A DNA stretch of 64,000 bases. Origin: Xylographa opegraphella (lineage: Eukaryota). The notes beneath the pieces are model-generated. The model had not been told where the DNA came from. It did no database searches and worked only from the letters and a program-made list of their open reading frames with translations. A program made the position numbers and the translations under genes. Location of the stretch: NCBI GenBank assembly GCA_022813865.1, contig JALDZX010000008.1, forward strand, positions 1 to 64,000. The letters run 5' to 3'. Positions 4,116-31,493 of this stretch are shown here, in pieces (position 1 is the first letter of the stretch; the number at the start of each line of letters is the position of its first letter).

Positions 4116-7100
4116 ATGGACTTCCCGCGGACTGCTCCCACGAATATACATAAAATTGTACTTCTGGTTGATCGTTGAGCACTGCCTATGCTTACCAACG
4201 TACAGGGCGGTATATTATTTATTCAATGGAGTGTGTACGGCTTAGGCAGTGTCTCTGATTCTAACTCCAGCCGAGATCGAGAGTCAACAAAGCAGACTTT
4301 AGATACTTTGCATCTTGCAGAGCACGAACTCCGGCGTTGTGGAAATCATGTGCTCCATGATCAATCTCAGGGAGTATTATGGGTTTTCGACCTCTCAGGT
4401 CCCAGTGTCCGGAAAGAGCCGAAAGCCGATAATATGGGAAGGATTCCAGCGTTGGTCGGACGCCATGGCTTAAAAAGTAAGTGCGCTTGCTGACCGTCCA
4501 TCTAATTCATGTCGCTCATCATTCGAAGAACTGTTGTTTGGGTCTCTTCGAGCATCCGACATCATTGATACTCCCGCTCCCAGCCATGAGGTTTTTTTTT
4601 CGCTCGGTATCTGGCTAAGCCTGGGCCAGAATCTGGACGCTTCGAGTCTAGTAAGAGCAACGTCAGGAGAAAGGCCCCTTGCTATATCACAGGACAATGT
4701 CTCAATTTATAAGAAAATAATATACGCGATATCGATGTCTATTTGGTATTTATTAGCAGATACAGACTATTATATCCCCCTTTCGCCAAACGAATTCTTA
4801 TGTCCGAGGCCAGAGGAAGACCATATTCTCGGACTCTATACAAATTGGAGGGACAGCTCGGACCTTTTCAATACCTTTTGTCTGGAAGTGCAGTGGCTTC
4901 CATGTGGTACATTGTTGATTTATAGTTATCCTGAACCAGGCGTTTTACGGCACAATCTGGTGGAGGAGCATTTGGCGCCTGACCGAAGTCCGGATTTCGA
5001 ATTTCAACTTGCACCGTTTGGCACTGTTGCCACGCAATACGACGAGAGTCTTAGAGACAATGGAGGTGTCGAGGTTGTCGAGCAAATGGAGGACATCATC
5101 GAATCAAACGAAGAGTCTCGTCTACAGAATCTCAAGCCATCTATCTCGTGGCTATTGGAGCAACATGGCCTTCGGCTCTCGGAGCACTGCGAGTGGCTCC
5201 GGGTAAACATCAAATCCTCTGCCAACGATCTCAGTCGCAAGCGTAATGGTGCACTTCCATCTGGTACAATTCTATGGCCTGCTCATCTTTGCTTTTATGA
5301 AGATAACCAATTCACGAGTGGAATGAACACTCCCTCTTGGCTGTGGCCGGGGCTTGAAACACCCGCATTGGATCCATTGAAAGCTGCAGAAACCTGGTTT
5401 CTAGAAAAGGACTCCCGTGAGAAGGCAATAGAGCAGAAACGTGCAGAGGTAGAAGCCCAGTCGCGACTGGAGCGTCAAGATATACCCTTGGATGATGACG
5501 ATCTATTACCCACAGGCTTCCTGACCATTGATCGGCATATGAATGTACAGGGAGCAAATGGTATTTATCCTACACCTCCTGATGGCCCCCTTGGACAGGG
5601 CTCAGATCGTGGACCATACGACCAGGCAAATATTCACAGTGATACTGAGATGCTAGATTTAGTTGAAGATCAAGGTACCGTGCTCGAACAAATCGATCAG
5701 CAGAGAGGTTTGAACACCGAAACAGGGATGAGTCTTGGTGCCTATAAAGACACTGAAGAGGATGATCTGTTTGGCGACATGGACTCGGCAATGTTCACTG
5801 CCAAAGGTATCACAGAGGATGATTTTGATTTTTTCGACGAGCCAGAGGACCTGAGCGGTTATGTTCCGTCTACGTTTGATCCGGACCCATTGACGAAGGG
5901 GGGAGCTGATCATACTGCCTCACATGCTTCTAACCCAACAGAATCGTCAAATGTCGACATGACAGTCGACGAAACCTACGATACTGGTGGTCTCGGGCGT
6001 ATCTCAATGATGCAAACTACTCCAGCCGAAGACAAAATACATGTGAAAACTGAGGACAGTAGCAATCAAAGTCAATCGCAGCCCCCTCTACAATCCATCA
6101 AGGATGATTTAAAACAATATATTATGCCTATGCCCGTTGGCGACTCGACCTCCTCATTCTATATCACATCGCAAAGCGAGCAGGCTTCTGAGGACCAACA
6201 TAGTGTGTTCGGAAGTATCCCTTTATGGGACGTATCTCGGAATCTCGATCAAAAGTACCGTGATCGTGGTAGGTTCTCCGTAGGTATCGGCATACGAGAA
6301 AACGATTTGGATCGCAAACAACAGCGGGTCGAGAAGTTTGTACCTCTACTTGGTCAGCTTACTGGAATTAGCGACGATGGACTTGACTCGGATGAAGGTC
6401 AGCAACTTTCCATCTGCTTGCCCTGTCCTTTAGTACTAACAAGGAGCTTTTTGATCTGCAGATTACCGAACGAGTGGACCTCATACACCAAAGTCGAGCA
6501 CAAACCATGATGACTATGAAGCAATTACAGATATTACCAAGATTTATCTACCGCAAACTCCATTGAGCCCTGAAGGAATTGACACGGAGTGTAAGACAGT
6601 ACCTGCACCGCCGCAAATGTTGCCTGGATCCAACAGTATACCGCACAATTCATCACTGCAAACAAACCCCTCTAGCCTGACTCGACAAGTTTACCGTGGC
6701 CACGATGGAAAATTTATTCAAGTTGCACAGATCTTGGCCGACCAACTGCTTGCCTATTCCAAGGCTGATACTCATGATGAATTCTTCCCAATACTTGGGA
6801 CCATAAATGTCTACGCTGGAGTGCCGTTCGAGGATCCATTGAGAAATATCCTGGATGAGATGTTTCCTCGGGATGAGATATGTACTCTAGAAGCTTGCGC
6901 GGGTCTTTCTGACGGTCCCCGCGGCGCTGTTACACTTCCAAAGGTTGTTGTCCGACCCACTCCTAAGAAACAGGACAGTGTACGTGGTCCAAGTCAAATT
7001 GCCGGCTATCCTTCGATCACTTGCCTGGCGAGTCCCGATCTGCGAGTATTACGGGGCGATACTCTTATGGACATCTCATCAACCGCATTACAATTCTGGG

Positions 7101-22327: not shown

Positions 22328-23909
22328 TCAGCCTCTTTCACTCCCACGTAGCCTTACTGCTTGGCCGTATTTCTGAAGTTTAGTGATCAAAGCGTCGCCC
22401 TGCTTCACTACATCTGTGTATTGCTTATTCTTATCATCCGGGCGGTTTGTCTCTATAATGCCGTTGACTCGATCAATAGTGCAAGGGATTCGGTCTGCTG
22501 CAATAAATTTTGCCAGATCCCTACAGAGTCCGGTTAGCCTTTTGTCATACGACGGATAGGACATTCAACTATACCGATCGAGAAAATCTACAGACACACC
22601 GAAATTTGTAGCCATACTCTTCAGGCTCACAATACGATAGCTCTGCAGCAGCTGCTGGTACCCTCTCAACCGCATTTCTCGGACAAACCACACTCTGTGT
22701 TCATAAAGATAACGATCTTGACTCAAGAAACTTTCCTCCACTGCTGCCAACGCTAAGAAGAATTCCTGGTATTTGCCAACGTAGAGGCTGCGGACAAGGC
22801 CCGCCAGAGGAGTGAAGTCCACAGGACTCTCCACTTCAGCGGCTTTGTCTGTTGAAGCACCGAGTGTAGTGAGGTTCACCGCCGTAGGCGCCGGTGTAGA
22901 AGTCGACAAGGGTGCATCTTTCATATTTTCATCGCTAGCACCTAGACCTGCGGATACAGTCCCAGTAAGTGCAGCAAGCTTCTCTTCGCCATCACCGAGG
23001 ATTGCTTTGACCTCAGGAGTGTCAACAACTTTTGATTTGAAGTCTACTCGTTTTAGAGACACGCAGCCTGCAAGGACTGAATATACAACGAGTGAAGAAT
23101 AACTGCACAGTTCGTAACTCGTAAAGGTGGAAAGGCTGTCGAGGAGTAGGGGTGCTGCAAGGTTGTAAGAGCGCGTGGTAAGTAAATGCAGGCCTTGGTA
23201 GGCTTTCAGCCGATTCCGCCGGTCCCAATCACCGCCACTTTCAACAAGTGCTTTTGCGCGGTCAACCTGCTTTTTCACCAGCATCTTATCATTGAAGAAC
23301 AATCCAACTCGTACGATCGCAAGAACAATGTCAATTTTTGTTCCAAGTACGCCGGTCTTCTCGAATACGGCTTCGTAGGACGACAGAGCTTTTTCCTGTG
23401 ATCCAACAAACATTAGGTACAGGCTTCACACACATGGAGATCATACACACTTTATCTCCAACTCGAGCCCAAAATTCGGCTCTCTTGCCTTTTGCAGCTT
23501 GTATTTCCGTGTCGCCAGCAGTCTCCGCTGCGTCTGCCTCTTCCTTCGCAAACGTTTCTAGCTCTGTGTCATTCTCCAGCCTAATCTTTTCATAAAGCTC
23601 TTCGCTCCAAGGGAAGTGGATTAGAGAAGAGTTTGAGCTGCCTGAGGGTCCTTGTGACGCGCCGTTTGTCCTCCTCAATGTTGTAGATGACCTCGACGCC
23701 GAGCCTTCACCCAAACTGTTCAGTAGACCTTCTGTTGGATGTGCCAGATGGCGATAGAGCGGCGCCATTTTATGATCCGATATTGCATCCTGAAGCTTTT
23801 TCAGGGAAGTTTGCCGCGAAGTAGATGAAGATGAGGGGTTGGTGAGCGTGAAGATGTCTTGTGCAAGGGCCAGGTTGGGATATTTCGCAAACTGGGGATC
23901 TGAACCCAT
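22328..23909 (-). CDS. RPN7: 26S proteasome lid subunit Rpn7 (PCI domain)
   Basis: MGSDPQFAKYP, GGDWDRRNRLKAY, LLDSLSTFTSYEL, REMRLRGYQQLLQSY, CTIDRVNGIIETNRPDDKNKQY; three exons. Confidence 0.96.
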
Positions 23910-24562
23910 CCTGAGTAACAATTTTGAAGTCCGTCACAGCGAGTCTTGGTCGATGAAGAGTCCTGCTTGATGCTTATGAGGAACAGACCACAGTACTGCC
24001 AGTAGATATAATTCAGTTGTTTTTACGTTTGCTTCTAACTGTAGCGGACGTGTAGCTGTTGTCATTCCAAGTGTCGCCGAGCTCGAATAGAAGTACCTCA
24101 GTCGGCGTAAGTAGGTACCTTACACTACTACCTTAGGTAAAGGTAGGATAAACCGAGTCATGCTAAAAGAAGGTCTACGCGGCTCAAGTTCATTTCTCGG
24201 GCCGTACAATCTCCGGCCGAGCCCCAGGCACCAGATCCAATCGTTTACAATCGAGGGAGTACTCTGCATCCAAGCAGGCTCAACAATCTCGTGTTTCACA
24301 TAGCTGGAGCTGTTTGGATTCATTCTCGATATGTTTATTTAGTGTAAGTTGAAAGGCACCAACGCTATGATAAACCTCCTCCAGCCAAGAAACGCCAGTC
24401 CGACGGACCTCAACTGTCGTTTGTGTGTTGGAGCCAGGTCAATCTATTATACAGCCAGTATTATATGCACGTAAAAGCTACGAATCTCAATTATGGTTCT
24501 CCATCACGGATTCTCACCTGAGAATTCCTTGGCTCGTGCCGATCAGCAATACCTATATGGCA

Positions 24563-27500
24563 TCAATGAATGCTCATCAATAGCTTTCTGTTCTTCTTCA
24601 ACAATCCATTCAGTCTCTTCTCTAAAGCTTCGGTTTCTTTCCTGGCAGCCGTCAAAGCACGTTCTGCCTCATGTGCAGTCATGGAGGGCTGTCTGTTCTG
24701 CCCCCCGCCGATGCTTGCAGTGTCCATTGTGGTATCAACTTCCCAGAACTTTTCAAGCGGTACGTCTACTTGCTTGTCTCGCGGCGAAGCGGCCGCAAAT
24801 CTATCATGGAATAGAGGGGCGATTTCTCCAGGCATTGTTGCGTGTTCTCCATTTGGCAATTTTGTAACAGCGGACTCTCCGTTGAAACCAATCGCCTGTG
24901 GTAGATCCGAGTTCAGCCAACGCTCGATACTGTGACGATTCGAATGAAAATCGGCTGGCCCGTTTGCCTGCAGTGTTTGAGATCTTAAATTCCTGTACCG
25001 CTCGGCTTGCTCCTGGGAAAAGCCTCGAAGAACTCGCCGGTTGGGCAAAACAACCGCGTATTTATTTGTTGTCAGTTTTATACAAATACTTTTGCCTTGA
25101 TCGAGAAGCCGGCGTTGTGCATCAGAAATTGGTGGCACTCTATCTGTCTCAGAGAGATCGATCTCATCCAGTTCAAAGCGATGATTGACGCCAGTAACAT
25201 TCCGGAATAGATCCAAAGCGCTGGAGACAATCTCTCCGGCTTTCTGGAGTTCAGCAAATATAGCTGCAGCAGATAGCTGGTTCTTCCGGGATTTGTCCAT
25301 AAGCTCATTAGGAGTTTCTGGTGCAATTTCGGAAAGCTCCTCTTCCACTACTTTTTCGTTGTTCTCATGCTTTGCCCTTTTTCTGCTCGAGGATGCTGGC
25401 CTTCCCTCCCTGGGGTCGACTGTTATGGCTGTGTTTGCATGATCTTGGGTCGGTTCGTCGTGTCGATATGTTGATGGCAATCCACTGCCTGTAGCCAAAG
25501 AATCCGTCGACATCTGTAGCTTAGATTTCTTCGTCTTTTTCTTCCGTCCAACGATTGGCGCCTGCACTGGCTCATTGTGTAATGTAGAAAAAGTAGTTGA
25601 TTCCGTAGTTTGTCGACTATCTTCTATGTTCCGAGCACGCGCCTGCCGCTCTTTCTTTTGCTGGCTTTTAGTATTGAGACGTACAGGAGCTGATCCTACC
25701 TTGCCGATGGGCGGAGAACCTGGACGAGAAAGTGAAGTCGACGTAAGCGACATATTATCAGAAACCGTATCATTGGCCGGAGTGTCCGGTTGATACAGGG
25801 AATTGAGGCTTGGTTGACGCGACAATCTACGATTCGTCATACCCACTGGTGTAGATACCGTGGTAGCAAGCGAAGGCTGTCTCGGAGGCGTTTCGACTCT
25901 TGTTGCTTCTGGTTTTGGCGTCTGGACAACACGAATGATACGAGGCGGTGCTTGGCGGTGAAGAGGAGAAGCAGAAGACTGTGAAAATGCGATCCCTGGT
26001 GTTCCAGGCTGTGATGACCCGGACATGTTATTTCGAACTGATTTACTTGGTGTGACTGTTATCACAGGGTCTACCGAAGACATCATCTGCTCGACATGCC
26101 TCTTTGAAGCGTCCTTAGCCGCTGTAATGTCCAACTTCCCAGGTCTTTGCCGTTTCTCTGGAAGGCTAGGTTTCTTTTCAGTCTTTTTCGGAAGCTTGTC
26201 ATCGTGGGTGGTTATAGCAGTTTCACTTTCTCTAACATGGATTTCGTCGGTATCTTGAGACACCAATGTCGCCCTGGAAACATCATTCTCATCATTTGGT
26301 CGTGATTGTAATGGCTCATTATCGTCATTAGTTATGCCTTTTGTGGCAGAACCAACGTTGTCATTCGTGACCGCTTCAGGTTTCGCTTTCCCGGAAAATT
26401 TCTGAACGGCACTACTATCTTGTATTGGCGGTCTTTGGTCTGCTAAGAGAACTTGATTTACGGATGGCTTGAGTGGAGTTACGGGAGTAATCGTTGAGCT
26501 AATTGCCTTGGATGTGCTAGCCAGCTTTTGAGGTGTTGCAAGAGGCGGGAAGTCTTCAGTTGAGGAGAATCCCGGGGGAGTTGAGATGGTGGCAGCTGCA
26601 GGGATCCTCGGAAGTTCCTCTTTGGTAGGAAGAATGGCTGGAGTCGTGTGAGTTTCGGAAATTGCGTTTTCTGAGCTTTCGATGGCATTTGGATCACGAG
26701 ACCCTAATAGGAAACAACAAATTAGCTAGGTGGTGCAAGCAAACTAAGGCGGAACAACGAAAACACTCGGGCCGTAAAACCATAGGAACCTCGCATAACA
26801 GCAACGTAAAGAATCTTGCTGTGATGAATTATCAAGAGCCAGTTACATCATTAGAGATATTATTGTCGTTCTCGTCATGGTATGATACGATAGTAGGTCT
26901 ATGATGGCGTATACAATGTAAGAAAAGGATTTGGTACATTGCTACCTAATTGCAGGTAGGGAAGGGGTATTAACGTACATCAGAACTGGCCATGACGAGA
27001 AAAACTTAGTAAACCAGGTGGGACAGTAGCCAATCGTTCCTCAATAACAGCTCAGTGAAAGGAGATCCCATTATGCGCAGTACGGATGAAGAGTGGTGAT
27101 AGATGCCCATATTAGACACCAACCGCGGCTCTTCGTTTGAAGCCCTGAACACCAGCCAGGGATTTCCCAAACTTTTCGTACCATGCATCATGCTTCGCTA
27201 GATGGGGAATGATATCCATACGAGTACTCCGGGATAGGACCAACGCAGGAAGAAGGAACTCTGAGATATGCTGTGGCCAGATCTGAAGCATCAGGTAGAC
27301 AAAACGTCTACCATCTGCCCCCAAATCCACCTCCGTACATCATATTGTGTGAACTGTACCCACCTTGACCCTGTGTGCCACCGTATTGCCCCTGCCCAGC
27401 GACACCGTGGTGTACTCTAGCTTGAAGTATGCTCGGGTCCGCAAGATCGACTATTCCACCTCCCCCAGAGGAGGAAGTGTTAGCATGTCTGTGCTTCTTT

Positions 27501-30114
27501 CCCTTCTTCTTCTGCTTCAGATGACCTTGATCTTGATGGCCATTATAGGCGCCAAGCGGAGGCCCATAAAGCGAGCTTTGAAGACCAGGGGCAGGGGAGG
27601 TGGTGGAGGTCGCACGCTTCGGCAAGAAAGAAGGGAACGTAAACTCACGCTTTCCGACATCGGTTCCCAATCCATTACCAATTCCACTTCGCCCTCGAAG
27701 GAAGTCCCTCATAAGGTCATCATTACTGTTTTTACCTCCGAAATTGCTCCCTCCTAAACCTAGACTACCACCCATTGCACTGGCAAATCCGTGACCTTGC
27801 CCGAACATTCCTCCACCACTAATGGGAGGGGTTCCGCTAGATTTAAGTCCAGGAGGTGGGCCTTGCACCCCGCTGTAAAAGTTCGTACGCAAGTTCGGCG
27901 GTTGTGAAGGTTGACTCGTGAACGGCTTCGACAGCTGTGGTGGCATCATGGCCGACTGCTGCGCCATCAATTGCGCACTTGTGGCTGGTTTCACTATAGC
28001 GGAAGCTGAGGCTGAATCGTTGGCAAATGTGTACCTTGACGCTTGTCGGACGTGTCCCGACAGGGCACTCAGCTGTTGGTTCTGTGCCTGAAAAGGATTG
28101 GACAGTTGTGGTTGATGCAGACTGGAATGACTAGTTATTCCCCGTTGTAAATGTTCATGTACTGCTTCGTGCTGTGGATTATTCGACTTTAGTAAGGATA
28201 TATGATGCTGCTGTTGAGGTGTAAGGCTGCGAGCACCTAGCGTCATGTCTGCAAAATTGTTTGCCATGGATACCTGTCCGTCAAATGGTTGCCCAGGTAT
28301 CCCGAAGCTTCGCTGCTGGAGTATATCACGTTGGACGCTCCCGAGGCGGCCTACCACATCCGTCTGGTGATCTTGGGTTTCTGGCTCTCCTCCGAGCTGT
28401 AAGCTGCCGCTGGCGAGATTGTCATCGTCTTCGACAGTAGACATCGCTTGTAGCATGTTACGCTGTTTCTCTTCCTCATTCAGTTGTTCTTCTTCTCGTT
28501 GAGATTTCATAGCGTAGTGGATAGCACCACCATTCACATCGATGAGAGGGGGATAGTTGTCGATAATGTTTAGGATTTCATCGTCATACATCGTTCGATC
28601 TAACGTCCATTTGAATGAAGAGTTTCTTACAGTCTTGACTGCTCGTTCGAGGCCGAGCAAGGAAGAATGCTGATCTTGGCTGATTGTTATCGTCTTTGCA
28701 GTTTCCTCGAGACTTATTGGACTTTCCTGGATATTGGCTTGTGCTGAGTTTTCAGCAAGTGATGGCGAAGGGTCAGCAGCTTGTCGATTTTCTGTCGAAG
28801 TTGCCAGAAGCTTGGCAGTACTTGTTCTAGGACTCGGCGAAGACTGACTTGCGCCATGACTGGAACGTCTACTCTGCTGTATATGCGGGTTTTTCACCCA
28901 AGTCGCAGTGGTCGGAAGCGCAGAGCCGTCGCCACTATCACTTCTACTCATAGTTCCATCTTTGCTAGTATGCCGAGCCATAGTTTGAGATACTGCAGAC
29001 AGCACAGGTAATGCTTGTTGCGGAGGGGGCTGCGGTTGGGGTGGTGATGGTTGTTGCGCAGGTTTGGTAGATGACGTAGCAATCGTAGAAGACGCGGCTG
29101 GGCGTTGGGTAGAGACTGCGTTCATGGAGGAAAGATCTTGACGGCTGAAGCTGTCGTTATCCTCACCCGTCTCATGAAGAAACATGCAACCCTTGTTGTT
29201 GCAAACCTCATTACGCAAGTAGGCAGAACAATACTTGGTAGTACCATATTGCGCTCTGAGGGCCCCATTAGCTTCTGAAAACAGACAATTAAGAAGAAAT
29301 ACAAACCTTAAAACTCTGTCGCCATTCTGGGATCCGTCAACAGCAGCAATACAGCTTGCAGCGTCTTGCTTTCGTGCGAAAGTAACATATACTCCTATAG
29401 ACTGGCTTCCTCCTGAGCCTTCTTTTGCTTTGCTTACTACAATTTTTATGATTTTGCCATACTGTCCAAAGTATTGATCACCTCGAAGTGTCTGAAGCAA
29501 ATCCTCCTCGCGAATCCTCGGATTAAGACCGACGACGTAAACCAGGTTCTTCTGAACAACTCGCAAACCTGCGAGGTTTTTCCGGCTTGAGGACTCAGCC
29601 TGCCGCCTTTCGGCTTCTTTCTGTCGAGCTGCAGCTTTCTTCCGCGCTTGAAGTGCTACGTCTGCCTTGAATCTTTGCAAGCTTAGTCAACCAGCTTTCA
29701 TGTCACGGCAATATAATTACTGACTCTTCCGGGCTGACTATCTTCCACTCAATATTCTTCTCATCATAGGGTCTTCGGCATGCGGGACAGAGCCCGTTCA
29801 TATTCGTCTTGATGTTGTTGTAGCAAAATTGGCATACCTGTGAAACATCATTAGTTAGACGCGTTGTGTTCCAGGGCAGCACCAATAGCAAATCCCAAGA
29901 ACTTCAAAGGCAGTAAAATTATGGCTTACTTGATATCCGCAAGGACATGGTCGGAAGTTCTTGTCCGACAGATCGAACTCCTCAACGCATAGTGGACTGA
30001 AGTAACAGGTCAGACTGCAGCCAATAGTGAGAATATGTCTCTTTGTTCCAGATCTTACCAAGCATCATCAGAGTCATCCATGAACGTATCCTGCTGAACA
30101 CGTCCGGTCGCCAT
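24563..30114 (-). CDS. NOT4: CCR4-NOT E3 ubiquitin ligase Not4/Mot2 (RING, RRM, C3H1; long splice form)
   Basis: C4C4 RING CPLCVEEFDLSDKNFRPCPCGYQ/CQFC..CPACRRPY, RRM RVVQKNLVYVVGL..YFGQYGKI, GTTKYCSAYLRNEVCNNKGCMFLHE. The unspliced short form ends at 27308; the long form joins the exon 26703-24563. Confidence 0.92.
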
Positions 30115-30459
30115 GTTTGAGATCGTAGGGGACTGGCAATTATGCTCAAGGAGGGTAAGCGCGATGAGGGATGAGAGATACTACAAGGAAGTATGGGCAT
30201 AGGGAGTCATGTAACCGCTCCTAGAAGACCCTAAAACACCGCGCTATGCGTAGCAATACAGATGTGATATGCGTAAAATGTGGTGTTAGTCTTGTGTTGT
30301 AGAACTATGTACTGGAAGTCGAAACTTTAGCGTGCTGCAACATGTGCACAAGACCTTAATTTTCAGCACCTCTTGCAACATCGACGTACGAAGTACCTAG
30401 CTTGTCGAAGTTCAATAGTAGCCAGCACTTCCGAGCAACTCATTCAGGAGCGACCACGG

Positions 30460-31493
30460 ATGACCATGTCAGTACGGCTGAGTACTATAGCGCCAGTACG
30501 CCTAGCGCTACGCTCAGTTGGCAAACATGTAAACGGCTATCAGGCCCGTCAGTTTACCCATAATGCTCGTCGCGCAAAAGACATAGCATCACAAGATAAT
30601 GTTCCAAATATGCGGCATGCCCCACGTCCTCGTAAGTTGGTCCACTACCTAGTGGTCGCTGGATATGCTAATTCTGTATCGTAGCTGGAGGAGTTCTAAA
30701 AGCACCTGTTATTAATCCTGCAGACAAATATGAGGAAAAGGCAACAAGTCTACACACCTATGGCCAATACCTTCTTTCATGCTTGCCCAAGCACATCCAA
30801 CAATTTTCCGTCTGGAAGGATGAGCTCACAATATATATCCCCCCTTCAGGAGTTATTCCAGTGATATCTTTCCTGAAATATCATACTGCAGCCGAGTTCA
30901 CTATGGTTGCGGACATCACGGCGGTCGACTACCCTACAAAGGACCAGCGTTTCGAAGTAGTTTATAACCTGCTTAGTGTTCGTCACAATTCGCGGATACG
31001 GGTCAAGACCTATGCAGATGAGGCTACACCAGTACCAAGTATCACAGGACTCTACGATGGAGCAAATTGGTATGAACGAGAAGTCTACGACTTGTTTGGG
31101 GTATTCTTTGTTGGTCATCCGGATCTAAGGAGAATCATGACGGATTACGGCTTCGATGGACATCCGCTAAGAAAAGACTTTCCTTTGACTGGTTACACTG
31201 AGATTAGATATGACGAGGAGAAGAAGAGGATTGTGGTAGAACCTCTAGAATTAACACAGGCGTTTCGGAATTTCGAGGGTGGTATGTATACCAGGAGCTC
31301 TTCTGGCGTTGATTAGGACTGACCGATAAATAGGCACGGCGGCCTGGGAGCAAGTTGGACTGGGTAAAGATCGAACACCAGAACAGGTATGCCATTTTAT
31401 GATATTGGCTACTCAAATCAAGTGCTTATATTCCAACAGTTTAAGTTACCCACACCAAAGCCGGAAGAGAAGAAGGAGGAGCCAAAGAAGTAA
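30460..31493 (+). CDS. NDUFS3: NADH:ubiquinone oxidoreductase 30 kDa subunit (nuclear Nad9 homologue) with mitochondrial presequence
   Basis: [60 protein letters not shown]. Arg-rich N-terminus; four exons ending at TAA 31491-31493. Confidence 0.96.

Follow-up and report, generated by a model that had tools for sequence, protein, structure and literature searches.

The 3' half of the NOT4 (Mot2/CNOT4) gene of Xylographa opegraphella raises the question of how many protein ends are encoded in this region and which splice sites select them. Not4 is CCR4-NOT's ubiquitin-ligase subunit, and the nuclear and ribosome-associated roles proposed for it are hard to separate. The gene lies on the minus strand of a 64,000-nt stretch (contig JALDZX010000008.1, positions 1 to 64,000), which was analysed as a whole and is referred to as the window. 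By sequence identity, the region is the 3' half of NOT4: its downstream open reading frame (ORF) matches, at 100% identity, the last 713 residues of the public 1544-aa protein P0001, annotated as 'transcriptional repressor general negative regulator of transcription subunit 4' [Xylographa], and a set of six exons that includes the second of two donors in the main exon translates letter for letter to P0001 (1544 aa). A preliminary description had proposed that one short and two long forms of Not4 arise from these two in-phase donors, a distal acceptor and a read-through stop. All of its coordinates proved right on the minus strand (Table 1).

The last 3.1 kb of NOT4 probably constitute a conserved alternative-processing hub, whose splice signals lie within coding sequence and which gives short and long products, each with or without the segment encoded by an exitron. 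An exitron is an intron inside a protein-coding exon, a concept that comes from plant and human work. Donor 1 would be joined to an internal branch point and acceptor to form the exitron, so that retention would keep a basic segment of 66 residues and splicing would drop it. If donor 2 is ignored, translation would continue for 17 codons to the stop after ...GGRW, and the short Not4 would measure 849 aa with the exitron segment retained and 783 aa with it spliced out. Splicing of donor 2 to the acceptor at 26704, across 660 nt, would instead add an extension of 713 residues, for a long Not4 of 1544 aa or, after removal of the exitron, 1478 aa. A join of donor 1 to the distal acceptor would likewise keep the frame (1449 aa) and is regarded as optional and unproven. 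The existence of short and long isoforms with and without the cassette is well supported by sequence comparison; the junction between donor 2 and 26704 is deduced in the same way, and the isoforms would be expected to differ in localisation or partners.

For comparison, 16 loci with a NOT4 main exon (L001 to L016, with L008 and L009 as duplicates) were obtained by a scan of metagenome contigs at 37-55% protein identity, and the last 200 codons of the main exon were aligned by codon for the window and 14 of the loci (15 sequences). The comparison revealed constraint at the nucleotide level on both donors and on the internal branch point and acceptor, and at the protein level on the cassette, the short-form tail and the extension. 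In the codons K-R-E of donor 1, AAG was used in 14/15 sequences, CGT in 15/15 and GAG in 15/15; in the codons Q-G-G of donor 2, CAA was used in 14/14, GGT in 13/14 and GGG in 13/14. Other invariant Arg columns, used as controls, employ three to six codons, and invariant Gly, Pro and Thr columns three to four, so that synonymous sites are otherwise scrambled at such distance. On these counts, selection acts on the nucleotide sequence of both 5' splice sites. A comparison of the donors, the stop exon and the phase across fungi had been suggested in the preliminary description; all of them were found to be conserved in 15-16 loci, which argues that the sites, although they could be due to chance in a single sequence, are not. 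Locus L015 is without donor 2 (…GQGQSGF…), and the usage of splice partners may differ between lineages, Dothideomycetes-like sequences included.

The preliminary description had attributed the presence or absence of the KKKGKKHRH cassette to the choice of donor. Forms with and without the cassette were upheld, as were short and long isoforms, given the conserved RW-stop tail and the conserved exon of about 700 aa, but the toggle was traced mainly to an internal 3' splice site that had been overlooked. The 198 nt between donor 1 and this site lie inside a coding exon, are divisible by 3, are open in frame without a stop, and carry canonical signals (GTGAGT, GCTAAC and a TAG 29 nt past the branch A). 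They code for REFTFPSF...KQKKKGKKHRHANTSSSGGGGIV, and upon their removal a single Leu would take the place of R-EFTFPSF…KQKKKGKKHRHANTSSSGGGG-IV, giving …GK-L-DLADPSILQAR. The KQKKKGKKHRH cluster in the 66-residue segment is a putative nuclear localisation signal (NLS) of the classical monopartite type, whose consensus K-K/R-x-K/R it fits.

The internal signals were conserved in the codon alignment as well. A third frozen block within the cassette reads CAT GCT AAC ACT TCC TCC TCT, with GCT in 13/15 sequences, AAC in 14/14, ACT in 13/14 and TCC in 13/15 and 12/15. At the internal acceptor, an I, V or L codon invariably takes the form NTA, and a G behind it makes TAG/ in phase 1; GCTAAC and the internal TAG occur together in 13 of the 15 sequences. 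Of the two others, L015 has a TAG two codons upstream of the usual position and a weaker branch point, and L010 has lost branch point and acceptor together, with donor 1 kept (AAAAC/GTGAGT). Homologous exitron joins with the same junction were found in 6 other loci (introns of 192-198 nt). Locus L014 carries a 58-nt intron at the homologous position (4283-4340; AGAC/GTAAGT…GCTAAC…TTCAG/TC), whose length is not a multiple of 3 and which, if unspliced, leads to a stop after two codons, so that its removal would be obligatory. Once spliced, L014 reads …NR-L-DHTDPSILQAR…GRW-stop, with the same junction as the spliced exitron; by this alignment, the cassette was lost in the L014 lineage and the intron kept. 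The codons D-L-A-D-P-S just past the internal acceptor (27420-27450, minus strand) are also frozen (GAT 15/15, GAC 15/15, CCG 14/14, Ser always AGY) and could represent an exonic splicing enhancer or a pairing partner.

Both states of the exitron were encountered in protein collections. A search for shorter proteins, with the A. niger homologue as query, returned 95 new proteins, among them ORFs that run uninterrupted from Met1 and the RING domain to …RW. Four of these read …AAK/LDLADPSILQ, as expected for the spliced exitron: P0357 (756 aa, 24 member sequences, contig of 2846 nt), P0362 (744 aa, contig of 2917 nt), P0379 (716 aa, contig of 2893 nt) and the partial P0368. In P0308 (808 aa, 16 members, longest contig 5712 nt) the cassette is retained. 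Other ORFs of the same sources begin inside exons (e.g. MFLHE…), as ORF calling on genomic DNA gives, and the intron-less Met1-RING ORFs, which stem from relatives within the Eurotiales, were therefore taken to be spliced RNA. The same exitron junction is used in the gene models P0378 (Coccidioides immitis) and P0347 (A. udagawae) and in the long model P0021 (P. destructans). The choice between forms with and without the cassette would thus arise mainly from the exitron, presumably also in long forms, and not from splicing between donor 1 and the distal acceptor.

The scheme of the preliminary description, with exactly three outcomes (intronic polyadenylation after read-through to the stop, or a join of either donor to the distal acceptor) and a cassette toggled by donor choice alone, is improbable in this light. 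It draws on the conserved phase 1 of both donors and the distal acceptor, on the persistence of donor 1 in L010 without an internal acceptor, and on a junction of the donor 1-distal type in P0023 (A. ochraceoroseus), P0032 (Z. tritici) and P0244; the 945-nt join appears solely in such gene models. Against it stand the conserved internal branch point and acceptor, which provide donor 1 with a partner 198 nt away, and the obligatory intron of L014, which is of the internal-acceptor kind. Moreover, the only donor 1 junction in transcript-like ORFs is the internal one (four ORF clusters, joined by models P0347 and P0378), and an intron of 945 nt would be 10-18 times as long as the other introns of the gene.

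For the long form of the proposed hub, the introns were as had been described: joins to the distal acceptor would remove 945 nt from donor 1 or 660 nt from donor 2 and would in either case lead into an open frame of 713 codons, and both introns are unusually long beside the four upstream ones (62, 92, 52 and 51 nt). Homologous long-form introns of 608-779 nt were found in 6 other loci. In all 12 loci with enough downstream DNA, the extension ORF follows on the same strand, and a branch point (CTAAC, CTAAT or CTGAC) and a phase-1 AG immediately precede the extension's conserved start. In the window, the first 213 codons of the extension ORF are free of in-frame Met, and an in-frame stop lies 8 codons upstream of the acceptor; in most other loci, the first Met of the extension is found at 62 to 342, with in-frame stops just upstream of the acceptor. 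With just 17 codons and a stop after it, donor 2 could pair with no other acceptor. The RING and RRM domains are fused to the extension in 34 public proteins of 1414-1707 aa, and 291 representatives match the extension at E<=0.001.

A separate gene for the ORF at 26.7-24.5 kb, with NOT4 ending at ...RW-stop and the entries of 1400-1700 aa as annotation fusions, is quite improbable. Many short models (P0036, P0341, P0349 and P0385, at 806-869 aa) are compatible with such an arrangement, an intron-like element in the interval (see below) could belong to a 5' untranslated region (UTR), and no transcript-like ORF spanning the junction was found. The extension is annotated alone in A. niger CBS 513.88 (P0373, XP_001394605.2) and A. 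tubingensis (P0375), but the N-termini of these two models, about 58 residues long, derive from translation of the interval and have no conserved counterpart elsewhere; both models are probably mis-annotations. Two genes would further leave donor 2, which is fixed at synonymous sites, without a downstream partner, and would need a protein that is conserved from the acceptor on yet lacks a Met for 213 codons in the window and has stops just upstream. The GTACGT of the element is preceded in the window by a TGA in the frame needed for phase 1, and no peptide from the interval is conserved across classes. The arrangement itself recurs in 12/12 loci, with strand and a spacing of about 555-720 nt (seven loci) maintained across several fungal classes.

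The short end of the protein was conserved in its own right. The 17 residues past donor 2 are maintained as protein in the 15 sequences (Y in 14/15, W in 15/15, with the Arg before W written in six different codons), and the stop follows 0-2 codons past W. All 120 of the ORFs listed, out of 814 matches, stop 16-19 residues past the G-G-Y/F motif; 59 of them end in RW, 24 in RWQL and 19 in RY, and the rest are close variants. Since tail and stop are conserved as protein, the read-through C-terminus is, on this evidence, a real and selected protein end. Among splicing variations in fungi, intron retention is the most frequent, and the public model for the Xylographa species is the long form, but it is highly improbable that the long form is the sole functional product and the short forms unproductive by-products of retention, given a tail and stop position held constant while synonymous change is free, and complete short ORFs in transcript-like contigs of 2.8-2.9 kb. 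To this is added the almost wild-type growth of an A. fumigatus strain with Not4(1-693), as reported in PMC7773993.

Several points count against the alternative-processing hub. The join between main exon and extension was present in 0 of the 95 new proteins, and no transcript-like ORF crosses it; when junction-spanning fragments of the long form were sought, 7 of 147 representative matches had upstream sequence, all of them full-length models. The long-form junction is thus based on conservation, phase and gene models, and the models disagree: they comprise donor 2-distal, donor 1-distal, donor 1-internal and extension-only types and ad hoc donors close to the tail's end. The cDNA (complementary DNA) origin of the Met1-RING ORFs was inferred from their intron-less state, in a collection that is not labelled as RNA or DNA. 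The 15 loci are related, and the counts are not independent events. Donor 1 of L010, which is kept without the internal acceptor, hints at a second partner for donor 1, and the use of all sites in X. opegraphella itself was inferred from the genomic sequence.

The extension is, according to sequence searches and structure modelling, a C-terminal region of Not4 that is specific to filamentous fungi and mostly disordered. In an AlphaFold2 model built with an alignment of 54 sequences, 463 of 712 extension residues had a predicted local distance difference test (pLDDT) score <50; ordered parts were predicted at 345-366 (a basic helix), about 464-596 (a small alpha/beta unit) and 676-710 (a C-terminal helix). 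The alpha/beta domain, modelled alone (149 aa), reached a pLDDT of 76.6. Fold searches with the whole extension gave single-helix matches alone (Z<=4.5), and those with the 149-aa domain gave no usable match (best Foldseek E 0.25; best VIA Z 4.7 over 46-50 residues). A motif Q-x-P-I-x-G-R-K-K-K-x-x-K is near-invariant among the 54 sequences. Its version in the window, Q-A-P-I-V-G-R-K-K-K-T-K-K (extension residues 380-392; 25540-25570, minus strand), represents a second NLS-like cluster, with which the long forms may be independent of the exitron cassette for nuclear import.

The interval between the stop and the distal acceptor measures 555-720 nt in seven loci and is not protein-coding. Exactly one TGTAYGT was found in the 900 nt past the stop in 16/16 loci, 215-650 nt after the stop, in the context ATGTACGTWA, CCCC, a hairpin whose stem sequence differs between lineages, TTCTCAC and AG. 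On the NOT4 strand, this element reads as an intron of 75-82 nt in seven loci. The element can also be read on the other strand (GTGAGA…TTAAC), but this is rated less likely: transcription would be expected in the sense direction, in which the distances to the 3' splice site are also more regular. In the window, the element is flanked by two arms of 12 nt that are 100% complementary and 109 nt apart; arms 110 nt apart were also seen in L006 (15 nt), L011 (14 nt) and L002 (20 nt at 70%), with sequences that differ between lineages. Duplex energies of the flanks beat those of shuffles (z <= -2.3) in 9/15 loci and were lower for cognate than for non-cognate flanks (mean -32.2 vs -26.6 kcal/mol, P=0.01); 6/15 loci were without significant pairing of the flanks, and the window ranked 6th of 15 in the cognate test. 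RNAalifold returned no consensus pairs for 12 homologous segments of 160 nt, for which the MAFFT alignment was poor, and Rfam gave no match at E<=1 on 26600-27700. A comparison of peptides from 7 intervals, in search of a hidden coding exon, gave matches solely between close relatives (L006/L011 and L001/L007). The ATG GCC before the conserved GTACGT was rejected as a start codon, as the ATG is not conserved, and a micro-exon or recursive splice site was rejected, as the upstream CCAG occurs just in the window and L001. The element could be a 3'-UTR intron of short mRNAs, a U1-binding or poly(A)-control element, or an aid to removal of the long intron.

A protein of this kind has been characterised in A. 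fumigatus (PMC7773993, mBio 2020). According to that paper, A. fumigatus Not4 is about 2x as long as the yeast protein, has a C-terminal domain unique to filamentous fungi, and is phosphorylated at S919 (peptide NISEISLGSPLPK), which falls within the extension. Likenesses to the protein described here include the RING and RRM domains, a region shared with yeasts, a long extension absent from yeasts, and the ISLGSP peptide of the extension that is phosphorylated in A. fumigatus (S919). The paper, in contrast, treats a single protein, and 'splic' and 'intron' occur 0 times in its main text, whereas alternative products are proposed here. The spacing between T638 and S919 is 281 in A. fumigatus vs 186 in the cassette-skipping P0023; these differ by 95 residues, exactly as many as separate donor 1 from donor 2 (the cassette length), so that the A. 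fumigatus reference model is apparently of the donor 2 type. Not4(1-693) was reported to be much more abundant than the full-length protein and differently localised (PMC7773993); this abundance would fit, speculatively, if the tag on the full-length protein reported the long isoform alone, and the published truncation work may need re-reading. No publication describing isoforms or exitrons of NOT4 in filamentous fungi came up in literature searches, and a 2025 review of CCR4-NOT has 0 occurrences of 'filamentous'. A long Not4 is already published for filamentous fungi, and databases contain both short and long models; new are the view of these forms as alternative products of one conserved splicing hub and the exitron, for which no earlier description was found.

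A more far-reaching proposal, unlikely as a whole, is that NOT4 of Pezizomycotina is a built-in switch, in which the NLS-like cassette of the exitron splits nuclear and cytoplasmic duties, donor 2 adds a scaffold of 700 residues, and the stem with the 80-nt element acts as a control device. Such a device would set splicing against 3'-end formation, or would mark short mRNAs for nonsense-mediated decay (NMD) or deadenylation, and marking of this sort would be feedback through the decay machinery to which Not4 belongs. The switch would also account for the reported finding that, in A. fumigatus, Not4 with a tag at residue 693 is far more abundant than full-length Not4 with a C-terminal tag. An autoregulatory switch, which the preliminary description had raised as a possibility, draws no support from the sequence comparison.

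Human CNOT4 has several C-terminal isoforms. The hub resembles composite or alternative last exons in that a 5' splice site would be either used or read through, leading to a distal exon or to a short intron-coded tail; it differs in that the short form could equally be plain retention of the 660-nt intron, as judged from the sequence, and the longest P0308 contig (5712 nt) would, by length alone, be able to hold that retained intron. Like known exitrons, the 198-nt segment lies in a coding exon, has no stop and carries canonical signals, and the predicted retained and spliced forms both encode protein. Unlike them, it has signals whose synonymous sites are conserved in several classes of Pezizomycotina, and it corresponds to an ordinary obligatory intron in L014. 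In Neurospora crassa, spliced 3'-UTR introns trigger NMD. The 80-nt element, if spliced in short mRNAs, would be similarly placed, about 330 nt past the stop codon; in contrast to the Neurospora introns, it is bracketed by a covarying stem. If isoforms with and without the NLS-like cassette and the 700-residue extension exist as proposed, the roles of Not4 would become genetically separable, as donor 1, the internal acceptor or donor 2 could be mutated without altering the protein of the other forms. The locus would also illustrate clearly how splice signals can stay fixed at synonymous sites from one fungal class to another, and it bears on annotation, as public NOT4 models are of at least four incompatible types.

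Table 1. Positions of NOT4 features in the window, numbered from its first letter; a slash marks the splice junction.
Feature	Position	Strand	Remarks
NOT4 5' part	29255..30114	minus	codes for RING (zf-RING_4) and RRM domains
Exon 1	30114-30059	minus	reproduces P0001
Exon 2	29996-29930	minus	reproduces P0001
Exon 3	29837-29725	minus	reproduces P0001
Exon 4	29672-29307	minus	reproduces P0001
Main exon 5, up to donor 2	29255-27364	minus	reproduces P0001; reaches 27311 in predicted short forms
Donor 1, GTGAGT	27643..27648	minus	AAGC/GTGAGT, intron start 27648; phase 1, within codons K-R-E
Candidate exitron	27451..27648	minus	198 nt, in frame; donor 1 and internal acceptor
Internal branch point, GCTAAC	27479..27484	minus	within codons H-A-N, followed by pyrimidine run ACTTCCTCCTCT
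Internal acceptor, AG	27451..27452	minus	ATAG/TC; phase 1, exon restarts at 27450
Donor 2, GTGGGT	27358..27363	minus	CAAG/GTGGGT, intron start 27363; phase 1, within codons Q-G-G
Read-through tail and stop	27308..27363	minus	short-form C-terminus GYSSHNMMYGGGFGGRW; stop TAG 27310-27308, after ...GGFGGRW
Long-form intron	26704..27363	minus	660 nt; holds short tail, stop and presumed short-form 3' UTR
Intron-like element	26899..26978	minus	80 nt; GTACGT, hairpin, CTTAC, then CATAG
Complementary arms around element	27001-26990 and 26880-26869	minus	12 nt; TTCTCGTCATGG and CCATGACGAGAA
Distal branch point and acceptor	26704..26726	minus	GCTAAT 26726-26721, AG 26705-26704; phase 1, two bases left ahead of next codon
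Exon 6 (extension exon)	26703-24563	minus	reproduces P0001; 713 codons and stop

The N-terminal domains of the encoded protein were readily recognised. The RING domain (residues 19-66) matched Pfam family PF14570 (zf-RING_4) at 4.2e-20 and the PDB entries 5aie (yeast Not4 RING, 1.1e-20) and 1e4u (2e-19), and the RRM that follows it (residues 123-201) matched PF00076 (RRM_1) at 9.6e-06 and PDB entry 2cpi (CNOT4 RRM) at 3.8e-18. A PDB sequence search with Not4 of the window matched solely RING and RRM chains and no chain of the Not1-binding region, and Pfam returned no family for the last 712 residues or for the 113 aa of cassette plus tail. As to the neighbouring genes, which were assessed by eye only, the one downstream (22565-23933, minus strand) resembles a PCI-domain protein of the proteasome-lid or COP9-signalosome type, and the divergent one upstream (30331-31316, plus strand) resembles an NADH dehydrogenase subunit of the 30-kDa type.

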